A DNA stretch of 64,000 bases from IMG/VR virus record IMGVR_UViG_2907208306_000002, positions 32,001-96,000 of that record; one strand, written 5' to 3'. The stretch's first letter is position 1, and the number at the start of each line of letters is the position of its first letter. This document shows positions 19,030-63,700 of the stretch, piece by piece. The DNA is from a virus (Duplodnaviria; Caudoviricetes). The notes beneath the pieces are model-generated. The model saw only the letters and a program-made list of their open reading frames with translations. It ran no database searches and had not been told where the DNA came from. The position numbers and the translations under genes are program-made.

Positions 19030-22000
19030 TTGGAGGCGGTAGAGATGACGGGTGAAAATTTTAAAGGTTTGAACCGTAAAAACTCAGCAATCGAAAAATT
19101 AAAAGAGGAATTACAAAGTGCAAAAGAATCCTTTACTAAGTATGCAAAAAATGCTGATGAAGAAAGTTGGTCTTTTATTACACTGAATAAACTAGAAAAT
19201 GAAATTATGGAGTTAGAATATGAATTGGATTGTGCTATTTATGAAGACAATCGAAGAAGAAACTGGAAGTGACCGGGTCATTGTTAGATAGATAACATAA
19301 TGAAATGCGAATTTTATAAGGAGTTGAATACCCATGAATTTTAAACCGTTATCTATTTACCTGATCGACTATGGAACGCATACCAAACTTGCTACATTTA
19401 GGATCAAACAAAAGAACTTAAATCATTTCTTTGATGTTGATGGAGAGTTTTCATTATCGGACGAATTCCTTAAAAGAGGAGTTATTGTAGTGACAGAGCT
19501 TGAAGAAGATGAGGAAGGCATATTCTAAAAGTAGGCAGCGAAAATATTTAAAAAGTAAAATAAATACTTGACTTAAACCAATAAAACAAATATAATAATA
19601 ATATAAAGTAAATAAGTAATTGAAATACTCATTTTATAAGGAGTTGAATGAGATGAAAGTTTCTCAATCCAAAGTATTGCACAAAGAAGGCTCTGTAAGA
19701 ACTAGAGTAGTATATCAAAATAAGAAAGGCTACTACTGTACCGTTGAAGCAAAACGAATATATTTAATAAAAGAAGACGGAATAGTTAATGAGGGGATTT
19801 CAAAAGGGATACAATATGAATTCAAGGAAAATAGCTTATAAAAGAGTGATTTTATAGTGATATGAAAAATTAAAAATTGGAGGAATTTAATATGAACACC
19901 GATTCCGTTAAAGCGAGAAGTTTATTAAAAACAGCAAAGCAAGATATCTTAAAAATGTATGGATGGACAGCAAAAGATTATTCTGCACGTATTTCAGAAA
20001 CCAAACAAGGGTTGAAGTTGAATATTAAGTTATTAGTTCCCAGAAAGGGATTTAAAACAATCTGTGATTTTTTGATTGATAAAGTAGGCACAAGACACAG
20101 CCATGTAGATGTTATGCATAAGTCAGTTTTATCACAGGTTGAGTCTATAATTGAACAGGAAGTTGAAAAGGGCATTGATTATGGTTCAATCTCCAGTATG
20201 GACTGGATAGTATATTCAACAGAGGGTTCTAGAAAAGTACAGAACTCGACAATTAGATTTATGAATAGTTTATATGATTACTCAATAGCTTAATTAGTGA
20301 ATAAAATTCTTGTTTCATTAAAATAAAAATAGGCAGGATAAGAATACTTATGATTGATTCAAAAATTATCATGATGATTCACAATGAAAAAGAGAGCATT
20401 AAGCAAAAGCAAAGGCAACTACTCATCAAATATGGATTCGGCAAGCATTCCAGAGATATTGATAAACAAATCACAGTGTCATTCTTTAGAATGGCAGAGG
20501 AGAGTCAAGAGGATTTAAACTCCTTCATTGATTTAGAAAAGGAATATGTTTGCTGTAACAGTAGGTTAGTTAGTTTGAGGATGAGTAAGCGTGAAGTATT
20601 AAATTCAAGGTAAAATGCTTATTTTACCAAACATCATTGCTCAAGCATCTAACGCTAACATATAATCAGAGTGGATAAATTAACTCTGGAGGCTCATAAA
20701 CTCATGGTGTGGACTATATTAGGCATAATCTTAGGTGTTCTTTCAGTGTTATCATTAGTTTTAGGTATGATAAGTTTATTTAATAAAGAGGATTATTCCT
20801 TTACTGGAAGTCGAAGTTATAATAATATGAGTCCATTTATGATGACCATTGTTTATGGAATATTGGCCTATATTATGTTTACGGTGAAATAAGAAGTAAA
20901 TAAATTCTTTAAAAGTAAAAATACATTGGAGGATAAGTAATGAATATCGATCAAAAACAAATTGAAAAGATGTGGCAGGAGCTCAAAGAGGTTTCTTTTG
21001 ATGAAGATTACGAAAATCAAGCCTTATACCTTGCTGAAGATTGGAAGCACTTTAAAGAGGGAACATACCAGGAGGAAATACTGCAATGGTTTGACGAAAA
21101 CTATAGTAAGGGTGCTTCAGTTTTCAACCATTAAACGATATGGGAGGGTTACAAATGAATCCACTCTTTAAAAAGGTAATCAAGATTTTAAAAGCGCACG
21201 ATATTGAGTTTACTGTCGAAGGCAGTACGATCCTAACGGCTCTTTGCTCTATAGAAATCGGTATGAATGAAGTCAAAGTAAATGACAAACCGGTTAATAT
21301 AGACGGTTTATGGATCACTATAGCAGCCATTGAGGGGAGGTAGGCGGAAGGGTAGCAGAGAGGTCAAGGCCTCAAAAAAACGGCCAGAAACAATTCATAC
21401 ATCCACGATTTTTCTGAATGAAGGGTTACTTTTATCATCTCTCAAAAATGCGAAATTACATATAATAGCGAGCATATTTTGTTTGGGGGATATTTTACAT
21501 AACAGCCAGCACTTTTTCTTTGACCGAAAGTTTTAATTGAGAGGCGGGAACGAGATGAACAAATTTATTAAGCGATTCACCTTTGAAAGTGTTGTATTAT
21601 ACTCGCTTTGTGCAGTCCCTTGGATGGTCTCTATTGTTAAAGCAGTTAATTAAATTAACATACATAAAATAGTTAATATGAATAGAGGAGGGCTCATGCA
21701 CAAAGTGACGTTGACCAACGCCGAAATAGCCGAATACACTAAGAACCGCCAGGCAATCCGGGACAGTCGAACGCGGTTTGAGGTACGATATCATACCGAA
21801 ATGTGTCTCGGTATTTTGCAGCGTGGCCGAAACCGGTACATAGATAGTTTGGAACATGAGATTACGGAATCAAGTAGCGATGATATTTAAATAAAGCAAC
21901 GATTTTACAGAGAAATGGGGCGAAGATCCGTGGACAAATATGTGATTAAAACGAATCAAGGTTACGTAAAAAATATATTAAAAAGTAAAATCCTTTATAC

Positions 22001-22169
22001 CGATGACTTGTCACACGCCAAACTTTATCACTCTTCATATAAGTGCATAGTTTCAATGGCGAATTACAAGTCGTTATTTAAACAGACGTGTCCTTCGATA
22101 CTAAAAATTAAAATGAATATCGAAGCATTTGAGTGGGTAGAAAGTCGATATTTAGTTCAATATCAGTAA
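19030..22169 (+). CDS. Array of about 10 small hypothetical early genes (19030-19272, 19334-19528, 19653-19841, 19877-20293, 20350-20613, 20671-20892, 20940-21134, 21140-21343, 21678-21890, 21915-22169)
   Basis: Co-oriented short ORFs, most with a GGAG(G) RBS; no family recognised. Confidence 0.65.
19568..19596 (+). promoter_or_regulatory. sigA-type early promoter
   Basis: TTGACT-N17-TATAAT with AAAAGTAAAA upstream. Confidence 0.7.
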
Positions 22170-22197
22170 TTAATTTTAAATATAAATATAGGGAGAT

Positions 22198-23749: not shown

Positions 23750-24896
23750 TTGAAGACTATTAACTTTTTTCATCCAAGTACAAAAATACCCATGATTGCC
23801 GAATGGGACGAAGACGGAAAAACGGTAATGTTCAATTATGACAACTTTGAACAAGCCAGGAAAGACTTCGACTCAAAGGCGATCGAAGAAACGAGAGAAT
23901 GGTGTATTCAAAGCGCGATAAATTGTTACAGCATTGAACAAGCTAATGACCATCTGGCTCATCTGAAAATCATCTCAACATTTAATTAGACCCAAATAAG
24001 GAACCTTAAATATAGGGGTTCCTTTTTATAAAATAAATATATACATACAATAAATTGTGTGATATAATTTAACTAACAAATCAAAGAGGTGAAGAAAATG
24101 TATAAGGTAAAGGTTATGGAAAAAGTTCTGGGCAAACTTGTTTTGAATACATATACTTTTTCTAGAGAAGATCAGATGCTAATGTTCAAGCAAATGTGTG
24201 AAGAGGACGGAGTATTAGTTTTCATCCAAAAGGCAGCTTAAGGTATATCTAAGGAGATGGAGTTAATGATTACAACTGAGTCAATTTTTTCAAAGTTAAG
24301 TGATGATGATCTTCGTAAAGCTTTTGCGGAATATGAAAACTGGAGAGAAACAGGGGTTCTACAGGAAGGAATAATCCGTAGAGCACATGAAGAACTTCAA
24401 GAAGTAAATGGATATTCGATTATGATTCATTCTCTAACTGAACCACTGTTGTACGTGATTATCAAAAGACTGATAAAATGATCCTTTTATTCAAATAAAT
24501 TAGATAAGGAATGATACTATGTTGAGCAGAATTAATAGATTTGATGAAAAGGTGAAGCTAGAAAACACATATAAAGTAAAAAACGATCATTATATTGTTG
24601 AGATAGAAATTAAAGAATTTGCAAATATCTTTGGTATTGATGTTGTCTATACAGAGCGCAACCTGCAAGAAGACGAAAGTCCACCACAACTTACAGTCAA
24701 TATTAACTTTAACAAAAAGTACACTTCTTATAATCCGTTTATTAAAATGCTTGAGGTCAGTGGAAGTTATTTGTTCGTCGATGGTATTTTGAAATTCGAA
24801 CGGTTTCCACAACTTAAAGAATCCAAAGTGCTGATGTTCATTACTACTATTGATCATTTGGAAGCAGAGAATTTAAAGAAACCAGTAAGAAAATAA
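23750..24896 (+). CDS. Small hypothetical genes (23750-23989, 24098-24241, 24257-24481, 24519-24896)
   Basis: Short co-oriented ORFs with RBS. Confidence 0.6.
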
Positions 24897-24926
24897 AATG
24901 AATATTTCATAAGGAGGAGGATTGTA

Positions 24927-25445
24927 ATGAAATTTAAGGATATCAAACCATACATACAGTGCAATAACTATTCTGTTGATGTTTCTTTGAGATATCTTGA
25001 AAGCACCATAGATGAGTATATTGAAGAGATGGGTTTGGAATTAGATCCAGACTTTCAAAGAGGCCATGTTTGGACGGAACAACAACAAGAGCTTTATATA
25101 GAACATTTGTTGCGCGAGGGTGTCTCAGGGTTAGACATTTACTTCAATCATACTAAATGGCAAGGAACAGAGGGAAAGGGGGATGGATGGTTCGTGTGCG
25201 TTGATGGGCTACAACGTCTTACGGCATGCCTTGGATTCCTTAGAAATCAAATTAAAGCATTTGGTCACTTTTACGAAGACTTTGAAGATAAGATTCCAAT
25301 GATGATACGCTTGAGTTTTCATGTTAATAACCTTCAAACTCGTAAAGAAGTACTTGAATGGTACTTACAGATGAATAGTGGCGGCACTGTTCACAGTCAA
25401 GATGAGTTGGATCGAGTTACGGGATTATTGGCAGCTGAGTCTTGA
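24927..25445 (+). CDS. Stand-alone DUF262 (ParB/GmrS-like) domain protein
   Basis: PDFQRGHVW...VDGLQRLT...MNSGG motifs. Confidence 0.85.
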   Translation: MKFKDIKPYIQCNNYSVDVSLRYLESTIDEYIEEMGLELDPDFQRGHVWTEQQQELYIEHLLREGVSGLDIYFNHTKWQGTEGKGDGWFVCVDGLQRLTACLGFLRNQIKAFGHFYEDFEDKIPMMIRLSFHVNNLQTRKEVLEWYLQMNSGGTVHSQDELDRVTGLLAAES

Positions 25446-25479
25446 TAAAAAGATTATTTTATGAAGAGATGAGAATTAT

Positions 25480-30708: not shown

Positions 30709-32019
30709 GTGAGCTATGACTTGAAAAAAGACCGCGAAGAACTTGAGGTTAACTTAAGGAATGTTATTGATGACAATAAACATAAGACAAAAATGCTTGC
30801 GAAAATAAATGACTTTCTTGATGAATATGGAATATTACCAGGCTTTATCAATGACATTGCAAGAAGTACCACATCACTTTCTAATTTAGAAACACACTTA
30901 CTTATAGTGGTAACAGACGCTGTGTATCGAGTTACAGGTGATGGCAGGATTATCAGTCAGGATTACTTTTCTAAGTCTGAATTAGATAAATCTTTAGAGC
31001 TTACCAGACAGAAATCAAATAAAATGAATTTAGAATTACCAATTGAAATATCTAATGTTTTAAATGTAGATCAACTAACATATTTCACTAAAATTGATAT
31101 AAAACTCTTAGTTGATATGTTTCACTCTAAATTGATAATTTACGATTATGAGACTCAAAGAAGTGCAAAATATCGTATGGGTAAAGATGGAGTAGTTCCA
31201 GTTCCTGATGTGAATAAGAAGAGTGTAGATGACATTGCTAAGCACATGTTAGAGGGCACTTATTTACCAGACATGTTGACTTTGAATGTCTATTCTGAAG
31301 AAGTTGAACCATTAAGTTATGACGAAAGAAATAAAATTCTCACAATCAATAAAGGATCAAGCATTTCTATTCTAGATGGATTCCATCGCCTACAGGGTGG
31401 AGTTAAGGCCTTAACTATAAACCCTAATCTGTGCTTAGAATTACTCTTATCGATAAGATCTTATGATACAGAGATAGCTAAGAAATACTTTGGGCAGATA
31501 AATACAATAAACGTTGTAAAGAAGGAGAGACTTAAAGAACTTAAGTCAGAAAACTGGTCTGTTGCTGTCGTAAGAGATCTTCAACAAAAGTCAGAATTAA
31601 AGGGTAATAAGATTGCTTCTGCTGCAAACATAAGTGAAATTGCTGGCCAACTAACGACATTTGATATTATGTCTTATGGAGTTGAACAGATTTTTTCTCC
31701 AGATAATTTCTTAGAATATAAAGAAGTAGCAAATTATCTTACTGAGTTTTTTGGATATTTAACTGGTCACTTCTATGATGAATTCATTTCCAATCCAAGC
31801 GCATATCGTAAAACATATGTTAATCATCCTCTGATGTTCTTAGGATATATTCAGATTGCAAAGAATTTTAAAGATCAGAACAAGGATTTAAGTGAAGTAT
31901 CTCACATTAAATCCTCAATAAATTTTGATGATAAAGAGTTGATAAACATTTTGAATAGTAAGAGCGGAATAAACTCAAATAGAGTAAGAAATCAAATAAT
32001 TAATTATTTTAAAAAGTGA
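30709..32019 (+). CDS. YopQ-like DndB/ParB-fold (DGQHR-type) protein
   Basis: ILDGFHRL motif, FGQINT; directly upstream of the YopR-like gene as in the SPbeta repression operon. Confidence 0.75.
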   Translation: MSYDLKKDREELEVNLRNVIDDNKHKTKMLAKINDFLDEYGILPGFINDIARSTTSLSNLETHLLIVVTDAVYRVTGDGRIISQDYFSKSELDKSLELTRQKSNKMNLELPIEISNVLNVDQLTYFTKIDIKLLVDMFHSKLIIYDYETQRSAKYRMGKDGVVPVPDVNKKSVDDIAKHMLEGTYLPDMLTLNVYSEEVEPLSYDERNKILTINKGSSISILDGFHRLQGGVKALTINPNLCLELLLSIRSYDTEIAKKYFGQINTINVVKKERLKELKSENWSVAVVRDLQQKSELKGNKIASAANISEIAGQLTTFDIMSYGVEQIFSPDNFLEYKEVANYLTEFFGYLTGHFYDEFISNPSAYRKTYVNHPLMFLGYIQIAKNFKDQNKDLSEVSHIKSSINFDDKELINILNSKSGINSNRVRNQIINYFKK

Positions 32020-32020: not shown

Positions 32021-33052
32021 TTGAAAGTGTGGGTGGGAATAGTGTCTAATGAAGTGTACAATGATTATTTATATAATGAAGAACAAAAGAAGAGATATCT
32101 TAAAGGATTGAATGAAAATACTTACACTACGTATCTAAGAGTATTAAAAAGGGCAAGTAAATTAGAAAAACGATTAGGTAAGGATCTTTATAACTTCAAC
32201 ATACATGAGATAGAAGACTTATTAAGTTATCTTGCTCCAAAGACACTCCAATCTGCACACGGTAGCGGCTCCATTATACAAAGTTATATAAGGTGGGCTA
32301 TTAGTCAAGATTTGAGAGACGATAATTTAAATCCATTAGACGTTCTCGGAGGCTTAGATTTTTACGAACGGTTTGTTGATAAGACAAATAAACTTCTTAT
32401 AACAGATGACGAATTGAAAGATATTGTAGGCGACTTAGATAATTATCAAGACATTGTGATTCCCATGGCTCTGTTTGAAGGAATAATGGGAAGGGAATAC
32501 AGTGAATTATTAAATTTGACCTTAGAAGATATAAATCAAAGGGAACACACAGTGCTGCTTAAGAACGAATTAAAAAACGGTGAAATTGAAACAAGGACAA
32601 TAAAAATAAGGGAAGAACTTACAAGATATTTGGTCAAAGCAGCTGAGCAGCAGATATACAGCCAGGACAATGGAAATAGTCGTGCTAAGAGTCCCAATGT
32701 TGAGCTAGTCGAAAGCCCCTTTATTATACGATCAGTAAAGAGAAGAGCAACTGTAAACGAGAAAGCTGATAAACACTTAGTCCTCAGAAGATTAAAGAAC
32801 ATAGGCATATGGAAAGGGCTTAAGCATCTAAGCGCAATTAATTTGCGAAATTCAGGTATGCTCTATATGGCTAGAAACCTGTTAAATGAAGTTGAGCCGT
32901 ATAATTCGCTGGATCGTGATAAAATTATCACTATTTGCCAGCATTATAATATTGGAAAACAATCAAACGATAGCGAATTTTATGCTTATACAAGGTACAC
33001 ACAGGACTTCTTAAATGAAGAAACCATAAGGAAGGTATATGAGATAGAATAA
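32021..33052 (+). CDS. YopR/MrpR-like master repressor (degenerate tyrosine-recombinase fold)
   Basis: YNEEQKKRYL, EKRLGKDLYNF, LFEGIMGREYSELLNL, NLRNSGM; canonical HxxR is altered. Confidence 0.75.
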   Translation: MKVWVGIVSNEVYNDYLYNEEQKKRYLKGLNENTYTTYLRVLKRASKLEKRLGKDLYNFNIHEIEDLLSYLAPKTLQSAHGSGSIIQSYIRWAISQDLRDDNLNPLDVLGGLDFYERFVDKTNKLLITDDELKDIVGDLDNYQDIVIPMALFEGIMGREYSELLNLTLEDINQREHTVLLKNELKNGEIETRTIKIREELTRYLVKAAEQQIYSQDNGNSRAKSPNVELVESPFIIRSVKRRATVNEKADKHLVLRRLKNIGIWKGLKHLSAINLRNSGMLYMARNLLNEVEPYNSLDRDKIITICQHYNIGKQSNDSEFYAYTRYTQDFLNEETIRKVYEIE

Positions 33053-35641: not shown

Positions 35642-35701
35642 TACATGCCGAGCGAAAGTTCGGCTCCCTTTTAACCTTAAAAGTAAAAATAAAAATAATA
35701 A

Positions 35702-35730
35702 TTGACAATGTAATATCTGGTTGGTATAGT
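35702..35730 (+). promoter_or_regulatory. sigA promoter for the tRNA/replication operon
   Basis: TTGACA-N17-TATAGT with AAAAGTAAAA upstream. Confidence 0.7.
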
Positions 35731-35812
35731 AAAGAAGTGGTTGATAAAAGAATAATTTCATCAAGAATATAAGCGAGTAAATGAGAGCATTAGCAAGTAT
35801 TCTTGAGAATTA

Positions 35813-35892: not shown

Positions 35893-35966
<74 letters not shown>

Positions 35967-41406: not shown

Positions 41407-41447
41407 AGATTTGATAGGAAAGGAGAGTATAATAAACTCTCCACATC

Positions 41448-41777: not shown

Positions 41778-41869
41778 ACATTAAGCCCCTTTATTATTTT
41801 ATATAACTATTATCGGATTTGGTTTACTGTTTATGAAACTGATAATTCATCAAGAAAGGAGGGTTCCCA

Positions 41870-42505: not shown

Positions 42506-43049
42506 AATCAGCATTTCATGAAAAGGGGGTGTCGGAAGGCTATGACGACTAAGAAAAGTAATCACAAGCATGAGTATGAAATGATTGAAATCAAAGAGGA
42601 TGGTTGGTTTACTCATGAAATGACATGTAAGATTTGTGGTCATGTAGGCAATCGTTACAGGATTGGACTGGATAAAGTGATGAAATGAAACTTTTATAAG
42701 GAGGTATAATTTGAAAAAGTGTGATGATTACTGTATTGCTATTTGTGATTATTGTACTCATTTTAAATGGTTCAACAGGGAGTCAGATGATGAGTTTGAT
42801 GGCAAATGTGAAATTGATAATCTAAAAAAGTATGCGATGGATTCTTGTAATGTCTGATTAGAGCATACAGAATGCAACTACTATAAGGAAGTGATAAATA
42901 TAGATGAATGTTAAATGCTCCAAGTGCAGCGAAGAGGTATTTGAATCTGGATCAATCAGCAGATGCTTGAGATGTGGTAAGCCAACGGAAAGAGAAGTTC
43001 CAGGTATAGAGTATTATGAAAATAAATATAAAGTAAAGGATGATGAAAA

Positions 43050-44733: not shown

Positions 44734-44767
44734 ATAATATCGTGATTTTATAAAGAAAGGGGTATCA

Positions 44768-46459: not shown

Positions 46460-47815
46460 GTGAATTGTAACAATACGCACTGTTTATGGAACGCATTTGA
46501 CCAGTGTTGTCCGGAGAGCGAAGAACTATATAATGCAGCTACACCAGACCGATTAGATTGCCCTTCATCCATGAGGAAAGATCACCAAGAATCCATGTAT
46601 CAAATTATGGATGAAGTTGATGAAATGATGATGAAGAGAAATTTTAGAGAGTTGATTCAAATACATAAATTCGTTAAAGAGCAGAGGAAATAAGTATGGG
46701 GCAGAACTGGCTAGAAGATTACATGAAGTTTAAGGGCATTACGCCTTTTGGTATTGTTATGTATCCATTCGTAGCAGCAATTGTAGGAGTTCTATTAACG
46801 TTCATGTACATACTAAAAATAACTTATTGGATTCAGAAGAAATTTTAAAAAAAGAAGTTAAAATGTAAATTTTATCGGAAAGGATTTGAGGAGTATCGAG
46901 AAATTATTTAAGGTCGAACTGCCGCTCAACGATCTGTTAAAGTTGGATGGGAATGTGCCCGAGACAATCCAGAAAGTCATTGATGAAGCAAAAAAGGAGT
47001 CATCGTATGGCTTTGAGTTGCCGGTTATGAATGAGATTCTTAAGCAGTCTGAGAATAATGGAAAATTAACTTGGACAAATAAACAAATAACTTCATGCGA
47101 ATTTTGCGATAAAAAGCGCGACTATTACAGATACCCACGCAGCAGCAGGTATCACAGCAAAGGCAACAAGAACTTTGATAAGCCGATTTATTACTCAGGA
47201 ATCAAGTTCAACGAAGGCTTTGTAACCTTAAAAGGCTATGGAGATATGTGTTCTGAATGCTGCAGTAAGCATAAAGTTAAAGAACGTCTTATCGATTACA
47301 TAATTGAGCACGATCTTAAAATCCAAGTCATGAAGAATGACTATAAGCCAGGAAGATATCTCAGAGACGATATTCGTATTTGCTATGATTGTGGCGAGGA
47401 AATGCTTGAATCTCAAATGAGTAAAGAGATGACATTGATGGGGAACGGATATTATCCTTCGGGCTGTCCTAAGTGTGGAGCCAAGTCTTTACCATTCGGT
47501 AAGAGTCATAAAACAACTAGCAAATTCGGATATATTCATAATCCTGAGTCGCTTGAAGAAGTGGTGGAAATGAAGAAGTTGGTTGATGAATATAATAAAG
47601 GTAAACAGGAAGAAGAGAAGTTTTGGTTTAATCAAAGTTCGAATTCAATAAGTTCTTTCTTTGTAAAAGAGAAGAAATGGTCAAACGGTAATAGAGAGGT
47701 TATTCAGTTTGGGACTAGTAGCAAAAAGTTTACAGTGGGGTATTTTTATAAAGACAAATGTGATGAATTTACGGAAGTTCTATTAAAACACGGATATATA
47801 GAAAATCAGAATTAA
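46460..47815 (+). CDS. Hypothetical genes (46460-46693; Cys-rich 46886-47815)
   Basis: ORFs with multiple CxxC motifs. Confidence 0.65.
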
Positions 47816-47860: not shown

Positions 47861-48367
47861 ATGAAACTGTATGAACTTACAGGCATGTATAAGAAATTCA
47901 ATGATTTCGCCAATGATGAACTCGAAAATGATGTAACCGAAGACGAGATTCAGGCACTAATTGATAACCTGGAGGCCATTGACGATCTAATTGAAAACAA
48001 ATGCGAGAACACTGCTAAACTAATGAAGAATATTGAATCAGATATCAAAGCTCTAAAGGAAGAGGAAGAACGGTTATCTAAGAGACGAAAAGCCCTGCAG
48101 AACAGATACGATGGTATTAAAGGGTACATGAAAGTAATGCTGGAATCTAGCGGTAAACAAAAAGTAAATGCTGGATTATTTAAGATTAGAATTCAAAAGA
48201 GCAATCCTTCTCTAGAAGTAATCGACCCAAAACTGATTCCTAATGCATATAAAATTCCTCAAGATCCTAAAATCGACTCAAAGAGTATTTTAGCTGCCGT
48301 GAAAAATGGAGAAAAAATCGATGGAGTTCGACTCGTAGAAGATAAACAGCATTTAGTTATTTCTTAA
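47861..48367 (+). CDS. Siphovirus Gp157-family protein
   Basis: MKLYELT...KALKEEEERLSKRRK...KIDSKSILAAVKNGEKIDGVRL. Confidence 0.85.
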   Translation: MKLYELTGMYKKFNDFANDELENDVTEDEIQALIDNLEAIDDLIENKCENTAKLMKNIESDIKALKEEEERLSKRRKALQNRYDGIKGYMKVMLESSGKQKVNAGLFKIRIQKSNPSLEVIDPKLIPNAYKIPQDPKIDSKSILAAVKNGEKIDGVRLVEDKQHLVIS

Positions 48368-48623
48368 TAAAATAAATATATACATATAATTATTTTGGTG
48401 GTATAATGACTTCAGTGGGGTTGTATACCACCATTTTTAATAAGGAGGGTTAAATACTGGAGAAAGTTGATTACACGGATGCAGAGAAGGAAGCGTTAGT
48501 GGATGCCATGCTTACAATGGTAAAAGGCAACCTAATGAAGTGTGATATCAATGACATATCGATTAATAGAAACGGTAATACATATAGTATTAATTTTAAA
48601 CATAGGGAAGGAGGTTGCCTTAA

Positions 48624-51600
48624 TTGAATCAGTTCAAGACATATATTCGTTTGATTCAAAATGATCAGTTTGACAATAAAACAGATATCCTTTTTACATA
48701 TCCAAGACACATGCCAACTCCAATGATTGGTGAGACGATTAATTATAAAGATGTCGATTATACGGTGACTCATAAGCGTAGTTTACCAGAATACAGTACC
48801 ATTGTAGTGTTTGTGCAGGAAGACGATATCCAATCGTGTTAAAAGAGTTCTTTTATTTAGAAATGGAGGATAAGATTAATGAATTTATTACAGGTTATTG
48901 AAGAAATGAATGTTGGAGATATTGCTTTCGCAAGTTTCGATTTCTTTGACTATTGGCATATTCTAAAAAGAGAAGATGGTGCAATAGTATATTGTGAAGC
49001 AGATGGTAAGCATCAGAATGAAATAGTTGGGCTCACGTACAGCAATCTTAACTCAAGTTATAGAATTCTGTAAGACAGGTTTATCTTACTGGAAGGAGAA
49101 TGGCATATGCTTAAACAGTTACACTCTTTAAGAGAAGGAGTATCGAATCTTATAAGATGGTTCCCAATAATCTGGCGCGATAGGGATTGGGACCAAGAGA
49201 ACTTATACAAAATCGTACATAAGAAATTGGAACACATGGAGGACTTCTTCAGAAGCGAAAACACTCATATTAAAGCAGCTAAAGAGGTTGCTGATGAAAT
49301 CAGAGAAGCAAAGGTTTTATTGGCTAACAAAATTAATACCGCTCATACGAATAAAGTTGATTATGATACTGATGAATTTATCAGCCTGAAGAATAATGAG
49401 TTCAACGTAGATAGAGAAAATAAAAACTATAAAGCATGGATGAAAGAAATGAGTGCAGCAGAAGAACAAGAAAGTAAAGATATGAAGGCAGCGTTTGAAA
49501 TCATCGGGAATAAATCTGAAAGCTGGTGGGACTGAAAACCCATAACTCAATTAGATGAAAGTTCTACTTAATTCAAAGGAGTTGTTATAGATTTTTCATA
49601 AATGGAAGCTAGTGTCTGATACTGGTAAGCATAGATATTATGAATGCTCTTCATGCAACGCTCGAAAGGTCTTGATTGCTCCTGAAGGTTATCAACCACT
49701 CGACAAACAATGGCTTAAAGGGAGAGAAGCGAAGATATTTTGCAGAAAATAATACGATGAAAGGCGCGTTTCATGGGGAATGGAGAGGAAAAATGATTAT
49801 TGAAGTAGGAAAATTACCTGATAGCGTTAAATCAATCATTCGGCAACAAACAACGGATTCTGAAGTGGATGTGTATTGGTCTAATGGTTGTAATGAAGAA
49901 GGAGAAGATTTTTATGAGCTTCAAGTAGAAAGTACTGATAATCAAATAACATATTTTTATAAGGAAGGTTGGGGAGAGATAAACGGTATTGAGGAAGCAT
50001 TGGAGGAATTGGAATGAGTTTAGACACATTCTACATAAGCAGCGTTCAACAAAAGAAAAAAGGACATATGACGGAATACGAAACTGTGCTTAATGAGGTA
50101 TTTGGTCGAGTAATTTCTTGGGAAGAGTTTAAAAACTCTGACCGCAAACTTCAAGCACGAGTAATGCTTAAACTTGATGAGGTAATTAAATTAAATGAAT
50201 CGCCCATTGACATCAAAAAGCTTGCATATGCCATTCAGCATTCCAGAAGTGGAGTGGGTGGATGCGCCATGACAGAGTTTGAGTGCAAGTTTTGCGGTAA
50301 AGAGGAACTATGGGGTAATACAAATACACCTGGAATCTGTAAAGACTGCGCTACTAATATGGCGAAAAATATTGCTAAATATAATTATAACATCTATAAG
50401 GAGGATATATGTTAAAAGAGTGGATACAAGCTAATTTAACAATATTTTCAGCTATTTTAATAATTAAGTTAATCTGTTGGGCAAACCCTGATTTGGATGA
50501 GCCATTTAATTATTGGTGGGGTATGTTAATACCCAATGTAGCATTTATATTAGTGTTAATTTTGAAACGATTCTTTAAGGAGGAATTTCACTGAATCAAA
50601 CAAATCCATATAAACTTGAAAAACTAGGTTTAATGCTAAAACTTAAATCACTGAATGGAGATCAATCACTTCTCAATGGGTTTATTGCTCGCGGAGGAGT
50701 TACAATAGGGGATTTAGAAAAGGCTTATGAAAGATTGGAATCAATAGATGATGACATTAAAAAATGGGATGCAATACATAAAGTAAACGAAATAAAAAAA
50801 CTATTCAACCAGGCCGACGAGGAAACGAAGAAGATAATGAAAATTGAACTTATGGAATTATGGAGGGTAGTTTACGATGGCCAAAATTGAGTATACTGGA
50901 CAACTTCCCATCCACAACAAAATACCTGAAAATCGCATTAAGCAAGGGGATTTTGTTTACTGCAGTGGTAGTAATGGCGTTTATGATTTTTGGGGATTGT
51001 ACAACGCAAGTAATAAAGCTGTGGTCGCATTGGATGGTGGAAGTACTGAATATGTTAGAGGTGAGGAATTGTATCTGTATGGTACATATAGTTATTGGAC
51101 TATTATCAAGCGTATTCCGTGCAATAAAGCTAACTTGGTTATTTCTGAGATTGAATGAAATGCGTGTTTGATAAAAATAATGGAGGAGATTAAATAAATG
51201 ATACATAGATATAGAGCGACAGTAATCAGAGAAGATGAATATATTATTGAGATCGATGACGAACAAATTGATAGGGAGTTTATGAAAGAGTACAAAGAGC
51301 ACATTGGAAATATTGAAACATTGGAAGGTCATGCAGAGAATTTAGCTTGGTATCGAATGATTCACGGAGAAGATTTCTATGAGGGATATGGTAATGTTCT
51401 ACACAATGGAAAATTATATGATTATTTACCTGGAGTCAAAGAGACTGGGATTAACATCAAAGTTGTTTCAGATGAAAATGTCGATGTCTTGGTAACTAAG
51501 ATGTAAGAGAGGAGGAATATAGCAGGTGACACAAGAAGAATTTAATGAACTTTACAAAGAACCAGTTGATTTATTTGAGGCACAAGCAGCGTTAAATAGA

Positions 51601-53169
51601 TTTATTAACGGGAAAGGTGTACTTAGAATCCCTGCAAGACCAGATGATGATGACATGTTGATCAGTAGAGCATTGAGTGAATTGAAAAAATTGAGAAACA
51701 GTACTATACAAGAAGAATAGGGGGATATTTTGGCTCGATTAAGCGCAGAAAGATTAAGATTACATATCAATAATATCATTACATGGACAGTTAATGAGAA
51801 TCCTATGTATGAGAATTTTACTATAAAGTTGACTATTCTTGGTCGCGAGACAGTTCCAGGTTTAAATGGGAGTCATGAGTTGGTTGATGGGAATATCGAA
51901 TACTTAATGGATACCATAAAAAAATCGCTTGAAGGATTTGAATATACAGAGTGTGAGTTCTTAGAGCCAGATTTCAAATTTGAAATTAAACGACATGAAG
52001 CATGGTATGATAACGGCTTTAAAATCCATCATCCTGTCAGTTTTGAGTTTATTGTTTGGGTGAATAGCGGTAGATGGAACGGTATATATTCGTGCACTGA
52101 ATTGGGACATAAATTTTGCATTGAAGAAAATTCTTTAATTAAGTTCTATGATGATTTGAAAAGCGAATGGGAGAATAGAAAGATTTTAGAATATTAAAAT
52201 ACATATTTTAAGGAGAGTTGTGGGAGACAAATGAATAAAATTATCGAGATTAGCAAAGAAACTTTCACGGAAATAGAAAGAGTCATTGACGAGTTTGAGT
52301 GTAATAAGCCACCAAGAAATTGGACATGGGGATTTACTATTGAAGGTGATGAAGAGACTGGATACGAACTATATGAAACACATTTAGAAAGTATCGTATA
52401 TCCAAATTATGATGTAGAAACCCATAAAGATATTATAGGTCGATTTATCGACAAAGGCAGCGCAGAGCTTTATGTTAAAGCATATAACTTACTCAAGGCT
52501 GTGATTGGTCAAGAGGATGAGATTGAATAATTGAGAATGAACACTTTAAGGAGAGAGAGTCAAGTGTTGAATAGTTGCGAGATACTTAAGAATGTAGAGT
52601 TTTTGAATGGAAAATTAATGATGAAATGGGTTTTTATGATGACGCAGTAGACACAAAATGCGAAGCGAGGAGGGAATAGCGTGAAGTACAAAGCAATTGT
52701 ATCAGCTCATATATGGCTAAACGGGGGTCATGAAGAAATCGAAATACTCTCCATGACACACAATGACGAAAAAGCAACTGGTATATTCGACGATATCGAC
52801 CACGCTCTACTTCATGAAATTGAAATCGGTGGCAGTCAGGACTATTACTTTATCGCCATTATAGAATCCAGATTTGTCGAGCATAGAACGTGGGAGGGCT
52901 CAGAGTGGGAGGTCGAACACGAAGTTCGAGAGATCAAATCCATTCAAGACATTGCTTCACAGTTCGAACAAAAAGCGAAATAAGGAGGAATTAAGTTGAA
53001 AATCCCATTCGGTAAACGCCCTATGTGTTCATGTGGAGTTAAAATGAAGCTTGTCGAGTACAAAGGATATTACGATGGATTTAAATATTGGTGTTGCGAA
53101 AACTGCAATTTAGAGAATGAACTAGATAAATATGAATCAGACGATAAGAAGTTTGGAGCATATGCTTAA
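48624..53169 (+). CDS. Array of about 14 small hypothetical genes (48624-48842, 48879-49073, 49107-49535, 49793-50017, 50014-50415, 50409-50594, 50633-50890, 50877-51158, 51198-51506, 51526-51720, 51730-52197, 52231-52530, 52681-52983, 52996-53169)
   Basis: Co-oriented ORFs with RBS, many separated by junction palindromes. Confidence 0.6.
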
Positions 53170-53286
53170 TATGTATTCCAAGCAAATTAGATAAAAGGAA
53201 TCTTTCATAAAAAACCTGATCGATAGTTTTTCGACATATTGATACAATTTCCCTCCTTAACAGTAATTAAATACCTCTTGCATAAA

Positions 53287-54928: not shown

Positions 54929-55311
54929 TCATGAGACAATCCGAAGGTGATTTAGAAATTGTTAAACGTTATTTAGAACTTCCTATTTTACTTGATGTCT
55001 TGGAGTATGATAAGAAGAGAATAGGAAGTTCTAAACTTAATAATCAAAGTATCATGGTGTCATATTTAGAGTCAATTCAAGACAAAGTTACAACGGATAT
55101 ATATGAAGTTAAAAAGGAAATGAGAAAAAGATCAATCAAAATTATCGAGCAAAGAAGGTTGGAGGATAGACTTGTTGCAGATTATTTGTGCAGGAATTAT
55201 AAGCATCAAATTTCATTGCTCTGGAGTAAGGTGAAGTTTGATTCTGAGGTTACATTAGCAAGATATATGGGAATTGATATTTATAAATTAGATAAACCGC
55301 CTATTCGTTAG
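54925..55311 (+). CDS. Hypothetical protein
   Basis: 128-aa ORF coupled to yolD. Confidence 0.7.
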   Translation: MIMRQSEGDLEIVKRYLELPILLDVLEYDKKRIGSSKLNNQSIMVSYLESIQDKVTTDIYEVKKEMRKRSIKIIEQRRLEDRLVADYLCRNYKHQISLLWSKVKFDSEVTLARYMGIDIYKLDKPPIR

Positions 55312-57685
55312 ACGGTTTACTTTTTGTGTTTATGCGTTTTTCAACCTTACCAGGAAGAGCGGTAATAAACCTAGAATATCCTTGATCACACTTAACATAA
55401 TTCATTGAATGATAACGCTTAAGATTCTTTAAGTCCTCATCAGTAAAAGGGTAAAGTTCACTCTTTAATTCATCAAAGTTCTTCTTATCGCATCCAGCCA
55501 AGAGCATGTAGGAAGTGTTTGCACTACGCAGCTCATCACGCATATACTTCAATTGGTTAATGTAGTGGCAACTTATAATTGGTTTCATGATGAACTTGGC
55601 GATTTGAGATAGTTTAGAGGTTAGGAAACGTTCAGTGTTTTCGACTTGATACAACTCATCAACAATTAAATTAACCTTAGTCCTTTTGCTTTTGTCCCTT
55701 ATTCGGTCAGCTCTAATCTGAAGTGCAAGCCAGATTTTAGTTATCCAATAAGTCGTACAGATGTCCTTTTCTGAATCAGTGGTAAACATTGATTGAGGCA
55801 TTTTGATTACGATTAGTTGATTCTTTTGCATCTCAGCACTCAAATCAATGTTCTTGCTGGTATCCTTTTTGAGCATTAACTCCATGTATGTGTTTCGTTT
55901 GAGAATGTTTAGGCGGTCAATTATACCTGTAATTAAGTGTGTTTTGGTTCCAATAATCGTGCCTTCTTTATCGGTCTCATCCAGCTCACTTAAATTTTCG
56001 ATATATTCCTCCAGGTTGTTGAGTTGATTTCTAGGCACCTTACTTAGAAATTTCATTCGTGCATTATGGTTTTGGAGTACATTAAAGACATCTTTGATAC
56101 TTCCAGTATTAATAAATACAACAAGGCTGGCACTCTCTAGATATCGTTCCATTTTGGGACTTAATGAACTGTCGCTTGCGTTTATCGAGTTGATTAGAGT
56201 GAGCATGTTGGCTGTCTGACGTTTAGCATTTTCATATTGTTTAAATACATCTTTGCTAACTCCTACTTCGTTAAAGCCCAGACCTTGCATTGTGTCGAAG
56301 TCATCGCAGCGGATCTCAAGTACTTTGTCTTTGGGGAATAGCTTTGAGACATTTTCGCTTAATTCACAATTCTCGATAAAATCGAAAATTATTACACATT
56401 CACCGGCCTCAATGGCATCAATTGAAAGGTTGGCGATTAGGTTTGATTTACCAGCTCTCGTTGGGCCTATGAGAAGCAGAAGGAGATTCCTAAATTCAAT
56501 GTCATTACTTAAGAATGCTTTCTGCTTCTTGCCTTTATAAATATTCTCACCAATACACATTGTACCTGAACAAAGATCCTCTGGAACCTCGGTTTCAAAC
56601 GTCTCAACTTTCTCAATAAAGTTATACTGTTCTAAGATGTCTCTTCCCGCCAATGACAAGAAGTTCTGTGCTTCACCGTCCCCAACAAGTAATTTATCTG
56701 CTCGGATATTGTAATCAGTGTATTCAAAATCCTTCCTAAAAGGCTTATAAATCAGTTCATTGTCTTCACTTATCGTGTCAAAACTCTGAGCTAAACTTTT
56801 AACGGTATTTCTTTGCCTTAAAGCGTCAGAGCTGCTGCCCATGACTACAATTTGGGTAGAGAGAATGGAGGCAACGCCTTTTTTCAATGTGCTATCGCTT
56901 ATTCTGAGTTTTTCTGTACCAGAAAGGGCGTTTAATAGACCTGATAAAAACCCACTTTCATCCGATTTTTTATCCGATAAACTGGATACAGATAGCGCAT
57001 CAGATAAGGTATTTATCACGGAGTCAATGACGGAGATACCCCATTTAAGCAAGTATCTCCATCCAGTCTTATTGCGGTCAATAGGTTTCCCCGATTTAAG
57101 TTTCTCGATGGTTGCTTTATGTTTATACCTCCAACCATGCTGAGAAGTTGGAATGAAATTATAGAAGATGCCTAACTTATCGCCCTCCTTGAGCATCTCT
57201 ACAACGTTTAAATTAGAATGGAGGAGATCATTGTTACGCCGGTCAATGGAAAGGCTCATACCGTCTTCGTTTTTATAGACAATTTGATACTTTGTGGGAC
57301 TGTCATTAAAAGTGGGGAGGGTGTTTACTTCTTCGATTGTTAATTGAGTCCACACATCGCTTATCTTTTCTTTAATGTACATAAGTTGATGATGAGGAAT
57401 GATGAAATAAAACTCGATTTTTTTATTCTCCATATAAATGAAGTAACTTACTTTGGAGTTGATTTGAATCGAGATTTTTGTTGGAAATACTATATCTTTA
57501 CCAAGGATTTTTATCATCTTTTCTTCCTGTTTGCTAATGTTCTCGATAACATTTTTATATAGACCAGATATTGCTCGTGCGAGTTTATGAGTTGAATTGT
57601 TACGTATTGAATTATTGGGCTTTAGCTTAAGGAATACATAGTTAGGTCGAGCAACCTCGATTACATCGCGGAGTTTAAGAGCCAT
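55301..57685 (-). CDS. VirB4/TraG/HerA-like P-loop ATPase
   Basis: GPTRAGKS Walker A, IIFD, LIVDE Walker B; 794 aa. Confidence 0.75.
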   Translation of the reverse strand: MALKLRDVIEVARPNYVFLKLKPNNSIRNNSTHKLARAISGLYKNVIENISKQEEKMIKILGKDIVFPTKISIQINSKVSYFIYMENKKIEFYFIIPHHQLMYIKEKISDVWTQLTIEEVNTLPTFNDSPTKYQIVYKNEDGMSLSIDRRNNDLLHSNLNVVEMLKEGDKLGIFYNFIPTSQHGWRYKHKATIEKLKSGKPIDRNKTGWRYLLKWGISVIDSVINTLSDALSVSSLSDKKSDESGFLSGLLNALSGTEKLRISDSTLKKGVASILSTQIVVMGSSSDALRQRNTVKSLAQSFDTISEDNELIYKPFRKDFEYTDYNIRADKLLVGDGEAQNFLSLAGRDILEQYNFIEKVETFETEVPEDLCSGTMCIGENIYKGKKQKAFLSNDIEFRNLLLLLIGPTRAGKSNLIANLSIDAIEAGECVIIFDFIENCELSENVSKLFPKDKVLEIRCDDFDTMQGLGFNEVGVSKDVFKQYENAKRQTANMLTLINSINASDSSLSPKMERYLESASLVVFINTGSIKDVFNVLQNHNARMKFLSKVPRNQLNNLEEYIENLSELDETDKEGTIIGTKTHLITGIIDRLNILKRNTYMELMLKKDTSKNIDLSAEMQKNQLIVIKMPQSMFTTDSEKDICTTYWITKIWLALQIRADRIRDKSKRTKVNLIVDELYQVENTERFLTSKLSQIAKFIMKPIISCHYINQLKYMRDELRSANTSYMLLAGCDKKNFDELKSELYPFTDEDLKNLKRYHSMNYVKCDQGYSRFITALPGKVEKRINTKSKPSNE

Positions 57686-60514: not shown

Positions 60515-60552
60515 AAAAAAACCGACTTCCTATTATAGAGGTCGGTTTTTTT
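60515..60552 (+). terminator. Bidirectional Rho-independent terminator
   Basis: A7-CCGACTTC...GAGGTCGG-T7. Confidence 0.8.
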
Positions 60553-60714
60553 AATGGAAGAAAATGCTTGACTTTATAAAATGAATATAATAATATAAGG
60601 TTATAAATTATTCGGAAGGTAAATACATAAATAATGTCGAATAATAGAAGTGAGCCCGAGTTGCTTATTCCTTGTTAAAGGAATTAAAAACGTTGTGGAA
60701 GGAGGTCGATACTT

Positions 60715-63700
60715 ATGATTCAAGAGATTTGGGATTACTTTAATAAAGAACAAGTAAGAGCTATTGATGTTGTATTCCTATCGTTGCTAACTTCTTTTTT
60801 CTTATGGATTATCAACTTTATATTTAAGAAATTAGTGAAATTAATGTCCCCAAGAATTGGGAAATTAAAGAAAATCATTGAACTGTATTATAAACTTATA
60901 TTTAAGAATGTTATGAATGGACGCTATCTTGTGGCTTTGGAGAGGAGATTGGCAGCAGGTGGCAAACTAAAGTGGTATGAAACCAAAGCATATAATAAAT
61001 TTAAAGAAGAGATTAGAACATATAATGAAGAACACAAAGAGGAAATTTCAAAATTGGAAACAAACCTAACTAATCAAGTGAATCACTTAAATAATGAGTT
61101 TAAAAATTTTCGTTGAAATTAGCCTTTAATTAAGAAGTAGGAGCATATAGTTATGGGAAGTAATCAAGTATTAAAAGGATTCTTCTTAATTTGTATTCTG
61201 GCAGCTCTAATAAATAAATGGTTGCTGCTTGGAGTCTCTGTTGCCGGTTTGATCATTTTCATTATATCCAAAGTAGAGTTGTGGGAAATAATAAGAGCGT
61301 ACAGAAATAAAAGGAATAGAGAATAAATCGAATCTTTTGTATAGAGGAGACGAATGCTTTATGAGAGACAAAACATATTTATTAACATATCAGAATAATA
61401 AAAATTCACTAACGTTTGCTTGGTTTGACACTGAAAGTGAAATGAGCGAGTTCGTAGAGAACGAAGATATTAACGTAATAGAGGCCTTATATGTTAAAGA
61501 AGCCGAAGTATTGCTATAAAGATGTGAGTTTTTAGAGAAGGGAGTGTTAAACATGACTAAAAAATTTATCATTAAAGAAGCATGGCTACTAGACGAAAAC
61601 GGCAATAAGTCACTAAAATTGAAACAGCAACTTGACCCAAACGAAGTGTTTGAAGTTCGTGTAGACCATGAAAGTGTTAGAGGTGGTCCAGGAAAAGTAA
61701 GCAATGAAGCAGAACGCATAGAGGATTGAATAAAATATGAGTGGAATTAAGGGCAATAGTTATAACTACATAGAACAAATATTTCATTGAGAATGGGAGA
61801 TAGTTAAATGGATATTTATAATACATTTAAAGTCGCAATGGAAATTACTGAGTTAGCTAAAAAATACGATTTAGAAGAAACTGGGAACAGTTCACCGGAA
61901 GAAATACAATCTCGAAATTTTGCTAAAGAGTTGGATGTTATTCATGACAAGTTGCTATATCTAGGTAAATTCTCTAAGGAGGACGTTTTAGAGAAAGAGG
62001 CTGTTAATACTGTAAGTGTTACTGGACTTCCATCATACTCAAAATTGATCGTTTATTATGTTTATGAGGATGAGCAAATGGCACTTGTAGAGGATACTGC
62101 CATGAATTTGCATCTTATCCCATTGGAAATTGTGAAGTTTAATGAATAATTGTTTATAAAATTTTCCTTTTATAAAGAAAGAGGGAATTACAGATGAAAA
62201 AATCAGAATTAGTTAATTCTTGTAATCAATTAATAAATAAAATTAGAGATCCAAGAGTTGAGATATATGGTGCTGGAGAATTTTTAGAAGGTACAGTAGA
62301 AGAATTAATCCCGTATTTGAGTAAAGAAGGATTAATTTTTCTTAGAGATGAGTTGGATAGATTATTAGCAAAAGACTGAATAAAATCTTTCTTTTATGAA
62401 GAAATGGAGGAAGAGCAATGAAGATCAATAAAAAATATAATTACTGGGAGTTTTATTATGATGAAGAAATGCCTGATACTACATACCCAACTCCGGAAGA
62501 TCGCCAGTGTATCGGTTCGATTTGGTCAGATGAGTGGAGCGGACTAGAGTTATTTGAAATTACAGATGAGGAATTGAAGCAACATCTATTACAGGATATA
62601 GATAATTGGTATGAGAAAGTTGATAAACGCAAAATCAAATCTGCAATCAAGGAACTTAGACAAATTCAGAAAGAAGTTAGCATTTCAGTATTAACTCAAT
62701 AAAAGTTTACTTTTACTAAGATAAAGGAGGGTGTGGGAATTGATCGAAGCGAGCCAATGTCAATTAGGAGACATGTACGAAGAAATAGCAACAGGACAGT
62801 TATTTATAGTTAAGAATTACGATGAAATCAGAGTTTTTGAAGTTTATGGTCAACCAGGCAACTATACTACAGCCCTTAATGAAAAATACCACCGTAAAGT
62901 AAAAACTCATAGTTAAAATCCCTTATAAAATAAGGTATTTTTGAAGAGTAAAACTTGATAAAAGGTTGATTTCATGGAGAATCTGTAATAAAATAAAAAT
63001 AAGAATAATAAATATAATATACTGGGAGGTGGGCTGTGAGGAAACCAACATATATGCAGCCAAGACACTACAGATACTTCAATAAAAATAGGTTTCATAT
63101 TGAAGGAGTATCCAGGAAGACTAAGAAGTTTCTTCAGAAAGCAATTTCGGAAGGATATTTGCCCACTGCAGAAGAACTCAGGTGGTCAAATCTTCCTGAC
63201 TGCCGATGGTGTAACGGAAGTGGTACATATAGAGAGCATCCAAGTGACAGTGGCTACGGGTGCAGCGATTGTGCAGGAACCGGAAAGGTGGGATGGAAAT
63301 ACGCTAAAGATAATCGGAAAATCAGCATAGAGACTGGTAAGACAGTTGTAGAATATTAATAAATCATACATATTAGGAGTGAAGAAAAATGGATAAAGTA
63401 TATTGGGCAGGTTGCAATTACTGGGTGAATCAAGGGGCTACCGAGTATGAACCAATTGGGACAGCAACATCAATGCATGATTGCGTTGGTTGTGAGAAGA
63501 CTTTATATTGCACCATGAAGCAAGTATCAGATGTTTGGGAATGGAATGAAGAAATTGCAAAGAACTTAAAACATAAATCCAATGAAATGCACAAGATCAG
63601 TAAAACTCAATAAAGGTTCAGAAGGGAGGGAAAAATATGAACGTAGTATATAACCTACATATGCAAGAAGTAAAAGCAATCATCATAAAACATCTCAATG

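Follow-up and report, generated by a model that had tools for sequence, protein, structure and literature searches.

Phage mosaicism is commonly ascribed to random illegitimate recombination followed by selection, together with homologous recombination between relatives. Ordered exchange is familiar from engineered Cre/Flp cassette exchange with heterospecific lox and FRT sites, in which only sites with the same centre recombine, and two different centres flanking a cassette lead to its ordered exchange without deletion; tyrosine recombinases of this type need identical centres in the two partners. Here, we describe a short palindrome, WTRAAA-N6-TTTYAW, that recurs at gene junctions in a 64,000-nucleotide stretch of phage DNA (Duplodnaviria; Caudoviricetes), namely positions 32,001 to 96,000 of the IMG/VR record IMGVR_UViG_2907208306_000002. 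This whole stretch is called the window, and coordinates refer to it unless another genome is named. We propose, with a probability that we put at about one half, that the copies are core-type recombination sites at gene junctions of this prophage and of related large Bacillales siphophages, that the 6 bp between their arms serve as an address, and that cassettes are exchanged between phages and not excised.

Short elements repeated along a genome are known from several natural systems. The stoperators of mycobacteriophage L5 are asymmetric and oriented. The pdif sites of Acinetobacter plasmids are 28 bp long, have asymmetric XerC/XerD arms, alternate in orientation and are used by the host XerCD, and the modules between them change position (PMC6449649, PMC13141974). 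The promoter-early stem-loop elements (PeSLs) of T4-type phages, of ~50-70 bp, combine a promoter with a stem-loop terminator and act by homology, with no variable address or dedicated recombinase (PMC2839356, PMC4122927). An initial annotation of the window had likened the palindromes to a further system, the integron; the comparison with related phages reported below leads to a different reading.

Spacing and Placement of the Palindrome

The pattern first put forward for the element has 26 matches in the window at a spacing of six nucleotides (N6), 25 of them within 19300-62975, compared with 0-4 matches at each of the spacings N0-N5 and N7-N20. At N6, left-left, right-right and right-left arrangements of the arms gave 7, 3 and 2 matches, respectively. 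The stricter form, WTRAAA-N6-TTTYAW, occurs 22 times versus 0-3 times at other spacings, and about 11 more copies with one mismatch lie directly 5' of a ribosome-binding site (RBS), giving ~33 in all. The initial annotation had estimated about 30 sites, which the 22-26 pattern matches and the one-mismatch copies bear out; all 12 of its quoted examples are where it had placed them, and the excess over other spacings is confined to the prophage. Its view of the architecture also held, as inverted arms in a strict 6-N6-6 spacing agree with the lox/dif type of core site, in which such arms enclose a centre of 6-8 bp.

The window is part of a ~131-kb prophage with 35% G+C (contig C11, ~467-598 kb; window coordinates ~-33,000 to +98,000) in a host genome of 7.9 Mb with 52-55% G+C. 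Of the 76 N6 copies in the whole genome, 45 fall within the seven 20-kb bins that span the prophage, and in the host genome outside the prophage, N6 is no commoner than other spacings. The palindrome as a site for a host factor is therefore ruled out.

Prophage-wide, 40 of 50 copies are intergenic, though only ~18% of the DNA is. Within the window, 23 of 75 junctions in the small-gene arrays are occupied, compared with 2 of 41 elsewhere, and the late region of the prophage beyond the window holds more copies. The claim that copies are absent outside the arrays thus stands as a difference in density, with exceptions at 4614, 35744 and 53191 and in an intragenic copy at 56944. The left arm, T[AG]A-AA, often supplies or adjoins the stop codon of the upstream gene (the stop lies in the arm or at most 10 nt from it in ~60% of copies), and the right arm is followed by an RBS with the consensus nAAGAAaGGAG and, ~17-26 nt later, by the start codon, much as the initial annotation had described. 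In the window phage, the arms extend to cTTGATAAAA (~10 bp), so that the element measures 26 bp at most. As had also been noted, 19301-19329 and 19621-19649 differ only in the centre.

Do the two arms pair with each other as in a hairpin? Among 104 oriented copies from three phages, arm positions 3 and 16 pair in 70 cases (67.2 expected), eight flank positions likewise pair at chance level, and A often faces C, as G does G. Arms that vary independently would fit two protein half-sites on duplex DNA. The 18-bp element contains no -35/-10 pair, no G+C-rich stem and no T-run.

The window phage is of the SPbeta type. A megablast search of the small-gene array against a phage collection gave no match, and a DNA-level search of 61 related genomes gave no close relative. 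Relatives were reached through protein searches, the nearest found being a prophage of Paenibacillus dendrobii, and six more were taken from IMG/VR (including L067, L068, L071 and L072). The P. dendrobii prophage has 67 copies at N6 versus 3-17 at other spacings. SPbeta has 20 copies of the pattern first put forward and 34 of the stricter form (0-5 at other spacings), and five SPbeta-like genomes have 34-38 copies each at N6 compared with 0-5 at other spacings. The sites of the window are as follows.

4614-4631: ATGAAA-TTATAG-TTTTAT, at a junction of minus-strand (late) genes
19300-19317: ATGAAA-TGCGAA-TTTTAT, followed by RBS AAGGAG
19620-19637: TTGAAA-TACTCA-TTTTAT, 3' of a TTGACT-N17-TATAAT promoter
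19838-19855: ATAAAA-GAGTGA-TTTTAT, left arm containing the upstream stop TAA
20301-20318: ATAAAA-TTCTTG-TTTCAT, centre shared with the P. dendrobii prophage, flanks without homology
20610-20627: GTAAAA-TGCTTA-TTTTAC, weak site with mismatches at two outer positions
24473-24490: ATAAAA-TGATCC-TTTTAT, centre shared with the P. dendrobii prophage
24893-24910: ATAAAA-TGAATA-TTTCAT
25445-25462: ATAAAA-AGATTA-TTTTAT, centre shared with the P. dendrobii prophage; a homology block ends inside
35744-35761: ATAAAA-GAATAA-TTTCAT, where the regulatory block ends; a homology block of 5 kb also stops here
40625-40642: ATAAAA-CATGTA-TTTTAA
40915-40932: ATAAAA-CTAGGA-TTTTAT, whose first base marks the start of homology to the P. 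dendrobii prophage, which shares the downstream gene only
41398-41415: ATAAAA-TAAAGA-TTTGAT
41833-41850: ATGAAA-CTGATA-ATTCAT, one mismatch, followed by CAAGAAAGGAG
42502-42519: TTGAAA-TCAGCA-TTTCAT
42680-42697: ATGAAA-TGAAAC-TTTTAT
43948-43965: ATGAAA-TGAGAA-TTTGAT
44734-44751: ATAATA-TCGTGA-TTTTAT, one mismatch, followed by AAAGAAAGGGG
45465-45482: ATGAAA-TAGAAA-TTTGAT, centre shared with the P. dendrobii prophage, flanks unrelated
46858-46875: TTAAAA-TGTAAA-TTTTAT, centre shared with the IMG/VR relative L068
47817-47834: GTGAAA-CATAAC-TTTTAT, one mismatch
48839-48856: TTAAAA-GAGTTC-TTTTAT
49757-49774: ATGAAA-GGCGCG-TTTCAT
51155-51172: ATGAAA-TGCGTG-TTTGAT, centre shared with two relatives (L067, L071)
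52194-52211: TTAAAA-TACATA-TTTTAA, centre shared with four relatives, flanks mostly unrelated
53191-53208: ATAAAA-GGAATC-TTTCAT, upstream of a Y-family polymerase; centre shared with the P. dendrobii prophage
56944-56961: ATAAAA-ACCCAC-TTTCAT, intragenic, in a 794-aa minus-strand gene (55301-57685); kept with both flanks in the P. dendrobii prophage
61113-61130: TTGAAA-TTAGCC-TTTAAT, centre shared with the P. dendrobii prophage
61770-61787: ATAGAA-CAAATA-TTTCAT, one mismatch
62156-62173: ATAAAA-TTTTCC-TTTTAT, centre shared with L071 and L072
62380-62397: ATAAAA-TCTTTC-TTTTAT, a homology block to the P. dendrobii prophage begins 8 nt ahead
62699-62716: ATAAAA-GTTTAC-TTTTAC, centre shared with the P. 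dendrobii prophage; the block begun at the 62380 site ends 20 nt past it
62958-62975: ATAAAA-GGTTGA-TTTCAT

The Centre Is Conserved by Position

The initial annotation had observed that the core differs in nearly every copy. This is true among the sites of one genome, yet at the same position, the centre is conserved between related phages. In the window phage, 18 sites have a partner with an identical centre in the P. dendrobii prophage, and all 18 pairs are collinear. When near-diagonal site pairs of these two phages were defined by BLAST anchors only, identical centres were found 16 times (0.09 expected) and centres with one mismatch 5 times (0.46 expected), with no excess at two or more mismatches. 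The homologous DNA of the two prophages is 68-85% identical, and neutral centres would therefore be expected to carry mostly one or two changes, which is not what we observed.

The conservation does not extend to the neighbouring genes. For 11 of the 18 pairs, no tblastx similarity was detected within 600 nt on either side, and among 37 same-centre pairs between the window phage and its relatives, 26 shared neither flank by tblastx (450-600 nt). Between 43334 and 64000, the window has 15 sites, of which nine are found again, centre and order unchanged, in at least one of seven relatives. The centre TACATA, for example, is found in five phages with TTAAAA, ATGAAA or TTGAAA as the left arm and with mostly unrelated neighbours, and the conserved tract at same-centre sites is often only 12-19 bp long.

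We also compared sites independently of their centres by taking pairs defined by flank homology at the same offset (n = 25). Their centres had no mismatch in 13 pairs, one in 3, two in 2 and four to six in 7. In 18 allelic pairs, mismatches numbered 7 of 108 in the centre, 16 of 72 at the four degenerate arm positions (p = 0.003) and 129 of 288 in the outer flanks. With the fewest mismatches, the centre is more constrained than any other part of the element, and this constraint is position-specific. Allelic centres that stay nearly invariant while the arms drift would fit partner sites that need identical centres. The initial annotation had instead supposed, from Tn916 and IntI, a tolerance of non-homologous spacers, which does not accord with centres that are the best-conserved part between phages. 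The pattern as a whole (nearly invariant centre, degenerate arms and conserved tracts that are often only 12-19 bp long) would fit what a tyrosine recombinase needs, and such tracts would be short for RecA-type recombination.

Boundaries of Homology Coincide with the Sites

In the right arm of SPbeta, phi3T, Goe11, Goe14 and SPR, junctions of 25-60 bp that contain a site are breakpoints of homology in 20 of 24 cases, compared with 9 of 26 for junctions with equal gaps and no site; these genomes are related, and the p-value of the comparison is only indicative. Over their full length, the five SPbeta-like genomes hold 229 sites with 83 centres, and among the same-centre pairs of this group, homology extends to both flanks in 120 cases, to a single flank in 95 and to no flank in 85. 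Where a flank is not homologous, mismatch already reaches 40-52% in the 8 nt adjoining the arm. One site allele, TCTAAATAAAAGTTTTATTTTAA, joins the upstream neighbour X1 or X2 to the downstream neighbour Y1, Y2 or Y3 in four phages. Short exact matches lie at homology boundaries in 140 of 157 cases when they contain the motif and in 673 of 4152 when they do not; this control, made with exact-match islands of 16-18 nt, is noisy, with chance matches, a second repeat (see below) and diverged coding DNA among the islands, and the contrast alone is retained.

The same behaviour is seen in the FADO/PJN02/PK-3 lineage, whose genomes are ~95% identical. Here, same-centre pairs have both flanks homologous in 61 cases, one in 26 and neither in 13, and at the site TTTAAT, PK-3 matches PJN02 on the left and FADO on the right. 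Sites at which one allele joins differing neighbours, with homology ending at the edge of the arm, are thus found in three lineages, namely the Paenibacillus phages of the window, the SPbeta/phi3T/Goe/SPR group and the FADO/PJN02/PK-3 group. These results agree with the initial annotation in that the sites bound single small genes and, once relatives are aligned, coincide with the boundaries of gene replacement.

A Candidate Recombinase

8253-9293, plus strand: candidate recombinase, an Xer-like tyrosine recombinase homologous to SPbeta YopP, with Pfam PF00589 and a SAM-like N-terminal domain

The protein is 27% identical to SPbeta YopP over its full length (E 7e-29). It keeps all six catalytic residues (R, K, HxxR, H and Y) and is apparently catalytically complete, which agrees with the recombinase fold that the initial annotation had given it. 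Its best NCBIfam models, XerA (79 bits) and XerC (67 bits), are both far below their cut-offs, no integron-integrase model of NCBIfam matched at E <= 0.01, and a phmmer search of the PDB gave no relative at E <= 0.001. Judged by these searches, the enzyme is Xer-like, yet an equivalog of no Xer family. YopP is a conserved core gene of SPbeta with unknown function (PMC8612738; 10.1101/2021.11.22.469490), and no function for it was found in the literature searched.

The motif is found together with this enzyme. In distant phages that encode a YopP-like enzyme, counts of the motif and of its reversed control were 33 and 2 in FADO, 36 and 2 in Geobacillus E3, 25 and 1 in Kirov, and 17 and 6 in BcoS-136. 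In all, seven of eight phages or phage groups with a YopP-like Xer-type recombinase carry the motif, and four control Bacillus phages, SPO1, SPP1, phi105 and phage G, show neither a motif excess nor a YopP homologue.

Proposed Mechanism and Alternative Explanations

How might such sites work? We propose that the inverted arms (WTRAAA/TTTYAW) would bind a dimer of a phage-encoded Xer-like recombinase, the candidate being the YopP homologue at 8253-9293, and that the 6 bp between them would form the strand-exchange (overlap) region, which must match in the two partners. With identical centres required and one centre per position, a site would recombine only with the same-position site of another related phage genome, whether that of a co-infecting phage or that of a prophage met by a superinfecting phage. 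A single exchange would swap everything to one side, and two exchanges would swap the gene or genes between two addresses, so that gene order would be preserved while the small accessory genes between the joints turn over. The action of a recombinase on the sites, its identity and its chemistry are what we infer here. In its full form, the proposal is of a natural cassette-exchange system in SPbeta-like and related large Bacillales phages, in which a YopP-family enzyme recombines only same-address sites, among dozens of addressed Xer-type core sites, of two phage genomes, and accessory genes, probably for defence and counter-defence, are traded with their order kept; to this we give slightly less than even odds.

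Several observations weigh against exchange by a dedicated recombinase. In YopP itself and in most homologues from the virulent-type phages (FADO, Kirov, BcoS-136 and phiL47), Lys replaces the second catalytic Arg (HxxK), a change that weakens Cre-type enzymes; HxxR is retained in the window protein and in the Geobacillus E3 homologue. Lactococcus phiL47 encodes the enzyme without a motif excess (5 versus 3), and the YopP-like enzyme is assigned to the sites through its co-occurrence with them in a small sample with related members. The centres within one genome are no more unique than expected by chance, and we do not use their uniqueness as evidence. As selection for exchangeability acts at second order, the sites may need a direct function as well in order to be maintained. 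Because the sites take up the short gaps between genes, genome compaction partly dictates that boundaries fall at the arm; it does not dictate that the same 18 bp should repeatedly outlast the replacement of both neighbours. Finally, in laboratory phi3Ts x SPbeta hybrids, the crossovers fell within long shared blocks or took the form of small conversion patches in coding sequence. This cross clearly involves general homologous recombination, which did not require the sites. Four of the six ends of long blocks in the hybrids coincide with a site, and the crossovers do not discriminate site-specific from general recombination.

Could general recombination, then, account for the sites? They would be hot spots of short homology, in which the site and the RBS serve phage or host homologous recombination (for example, through a Sak4/RecT-type annealase) without a dedicated recombinase, and the palindrome is kept for another reason. 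Crossing over at conserved junction sequences has been proposed for the T4 PeSLs and for lambdoid boundary sequences, and the coincidence of breakpoints with sites, the active general recombination between SPbeta and phi3Ts in laboratory hybrids and the Sak4-like annealing protein annotated in SPbeta are all in keeping with it. Conserved centres are predicted too, as an identical centre lengthens the identical tract. We nevertheless consider this explanation unlikely, since it leaves the strict 6-N6-6 palindrome without a reason, accords poorly with tracts so short and with arm positions that differ while the centre is exact, and does not explain the co-occurrence with an Xer-like enzyme, including in phages without an evident need for an integrase. 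A dimeric DNA-binding regulator that tunes the early arrays from operators or roadblocks, like the L5 stoperators, with mosaic boundaries incidental to gap filling, would account for symmetric half-sites that vary independently, for intergenic positions adjoining an RBS and for the higher site density of the accessory arrays; working operators, for example SPBRE (the operator of MrpR, the SPbeta repressor), likewise survive as conserved islands where the genes around them have been replaced. With a regulator that recognises the arms, however, there would be no cause for the position-specific centre to be better conserved than the degenerate arm positions, and the motif is shared by distant Bacillus, Geobacillus and Paenibacillus phages whose regulators differ. 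MrpR itself binds a different element, and its only ten peaks in chromatin affinity precipitation sequencing (ChAP-seq) include none assigned to palindromes (PMC10516654). We regard the regulator as an improbable explanation.

The integron-like model, in which stop-site-RBS-ORF (open reading frame) units are promoterless cassettes excised as circles and reinserted or shuffled through sites with differing centres, draws on the single small genes bounded by sites, on the tyrosine recombinase encoded and on the hypervariability of the arrays between relatives. It is very improbable in light of the comparison between phages: a given site allele stays in place while the genes on both sides of it change, site order is preserved across eight relatives, and a site is thus bound to a position and does not travel with a gene as on a mobile cassette; centres are conserved and not variable-tolerant; and the data give no sign of excision or shuffling within a genome. 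The analogy also fails in detail, for the site is 18 bp long, with no attC-like fold or arm covariation, no integron-integrase model matched the enzyme, and no equivalent of attI or Pc was identified. Scarcely credible, in turn, is an RNA hairpin or protein-binding signal 5' of the Shine-Dalgarno sequence that acts in processing, stability or translational control. The fixed placement 5' of the RBS with its conserved right flank and the overlap of the upstream stop codon with the left arm speak for it, whereas a stem of six A-U pairs would be marginal, A faces C or G faces G in many copies, one copy is intragenic, others are far from any start, and position-specific loops have no rationale in RNA. 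No Rfam family matches the palindrome (the only match in the window is a tRNA, 35893-35966), and as the arms do not covary, a hairpin in RNA or in single-stranded DNA is ruled out; the processing or antitermination signal that had been named as an alternative has no support from pairing.

Two further identities were considered and rejected. SPBRE was published as a 15-bp motif at ten promoters (PMC10516654). We recovered it from SPbeta as A[CT]AAA[AT]AATATGTAT, an asymmetric 15-mer found there only at yonP, yonT, yonX, aimR, yopM, yopV, yorE, yorM, yorZ and yosX, which are the ten ChAP-seq promoters; the window has no copy at <=2 mismatches, except one chance-level match. As SPBRE is a separate, non-palindromic 15-mer at exactly the ten MrpR peaks, the palindrome is ruled out as the MrpR operator, the other alternative of the initial annotation, which had suggested a YopR-like repressor. 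A promoter for the SPbeta RNA polymerase YonO is likewise ruled out, as YonO starts at a single promoter, upstream of yonK (PMC5467207).

Other Features of the Prophage

5177-7789, minus strand: 870-aa protein with no Pfam family, PHROG 8308 (unknown function; E 7e-296)
30709-32019: DndB/ParB-like protein that occupies the place of YopQ
32021-33052: homologue of the MrpR/YopR master repressor, with Pfam PF22822 and PF22823

The compositional gap between the prophage and its host is unusually large for a resident prophage. The 870-aa protein matches the single-chain RNA polymerase YonO of SPbeta in size and position. The tRNA gene at 35893-35966 (Rfam) lies just past the site at 35744, between the regulatory and replication blocks.

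A sigma-A-type promoter, TTGACT-N17-TATAAT, is present in two copies 587 bp apart (18964-19022 and 19551-19609), each ahead of a small gene, and the site at 19620 is directly 3' of the second copy. A 44-nt repeat at 16552-16595, 24025-24068 and 48364-48407 has an extended -10 (TGnTATAAT) at its end and includes AAATATATACATA, a sequence similar to the reverse complement of the SPbeta SPBRE; at two of the three copies, homology blocks to the P. dendrobii prophage begin. This repeat, which heads each small-gene array, is a candidate for a promoter combined with an operator of the MrpR homologue (32021-33052).

In SPbeta-like phages, a second repeat, AGAATAAAAATAAAAT(TA), is found directly 3' of some palindromes (SPbeta NC_001884, e.g., 113681-113698 and 132763-132781), and a similar A-rich repeat occurs twice in the window, at 35686-35716 and 62990-63020. 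A 78-nt repeat with 77% identity (42314-42391 and 46242-46319) lies inside the array ORFs 42065-42505 and 45735-46448; these two genes therefore share a paralogous segment.

Significance and Comparison with Known Systems

No description of the palindrome was found in the literature searched. If the exchange proposal is true, addressed crossover sites would constitute a programmed mechanism for phage mosaicism and would account for the turnover of hypervariable small-gene arrays in SPbeta-type phages with gene order kept. A function would be provided for YopP and for the puzzling "integrases" of large phages in this group, and genome engineering might draw on a natural collection of orthogonal recombination sites. 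In Bacillus subtilis, SPbeta and phi3T would allow a direct test of the model.

Among the known systems, heterospecific lox and FRT sites share with the palindromes identical inverted arms and a short centre, and the conservation pattern suggests that the palindromes behave in the same way. Those systems are man-made, with 13-8-13 sites and two or three spacer variants, whereas here there are 40-70 natural addresses per genome, sites of 6-N6-6 (up to 10-N6-10) and a candidate enzyme. The pdif/dif modules of Acinetobacter plasmids resemble the arrays in having many Xer-type sites, with inverted arms and a 6-bp centre, dispersed in one replicon, where they bound small accessory modules that are combined differently in related replicons (PMC6449649, PMC13141974); unlike pdif sites, the palindromes are symmetric, reside in phages, are putatively linked to a single phage-encoded recombinase and keep their positions and order. 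Similarly, the PeSLs of T4-type phages are repeated intergenic elements that, in hyperplastic regions, flank small novel ORFs and mark where close relatives differ by insertion, deletion or replacement (PMC2839356, PMC4122927), whereas the palindrome measures 18 bp and has no promoter or terminator.

Integrons offer promoterless single-gene units between imperfect palindromes and a tyrosine recombinase, but attC is 57-141 bp long, has paired R''/L''-L'/R' boxes, recombines as a folded single strand and travels with its cassette, and IntI is of a distinct subfamily. SPBRE and the L5 stoperators, like the palindrome, are short and recur between genes at many points in the genome of a temperate phage; SPBRE, in contrast, is an asymmetric 15-mer, the stoperators are asymmetric and oriented, and both lack a position-specific centre. 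The palindrome belongs to none of these systems. By analogy, it would work most like lox/FRT exchange and the pdif modules, and its evolutionary role would be most like that of the T4 PeSLs.

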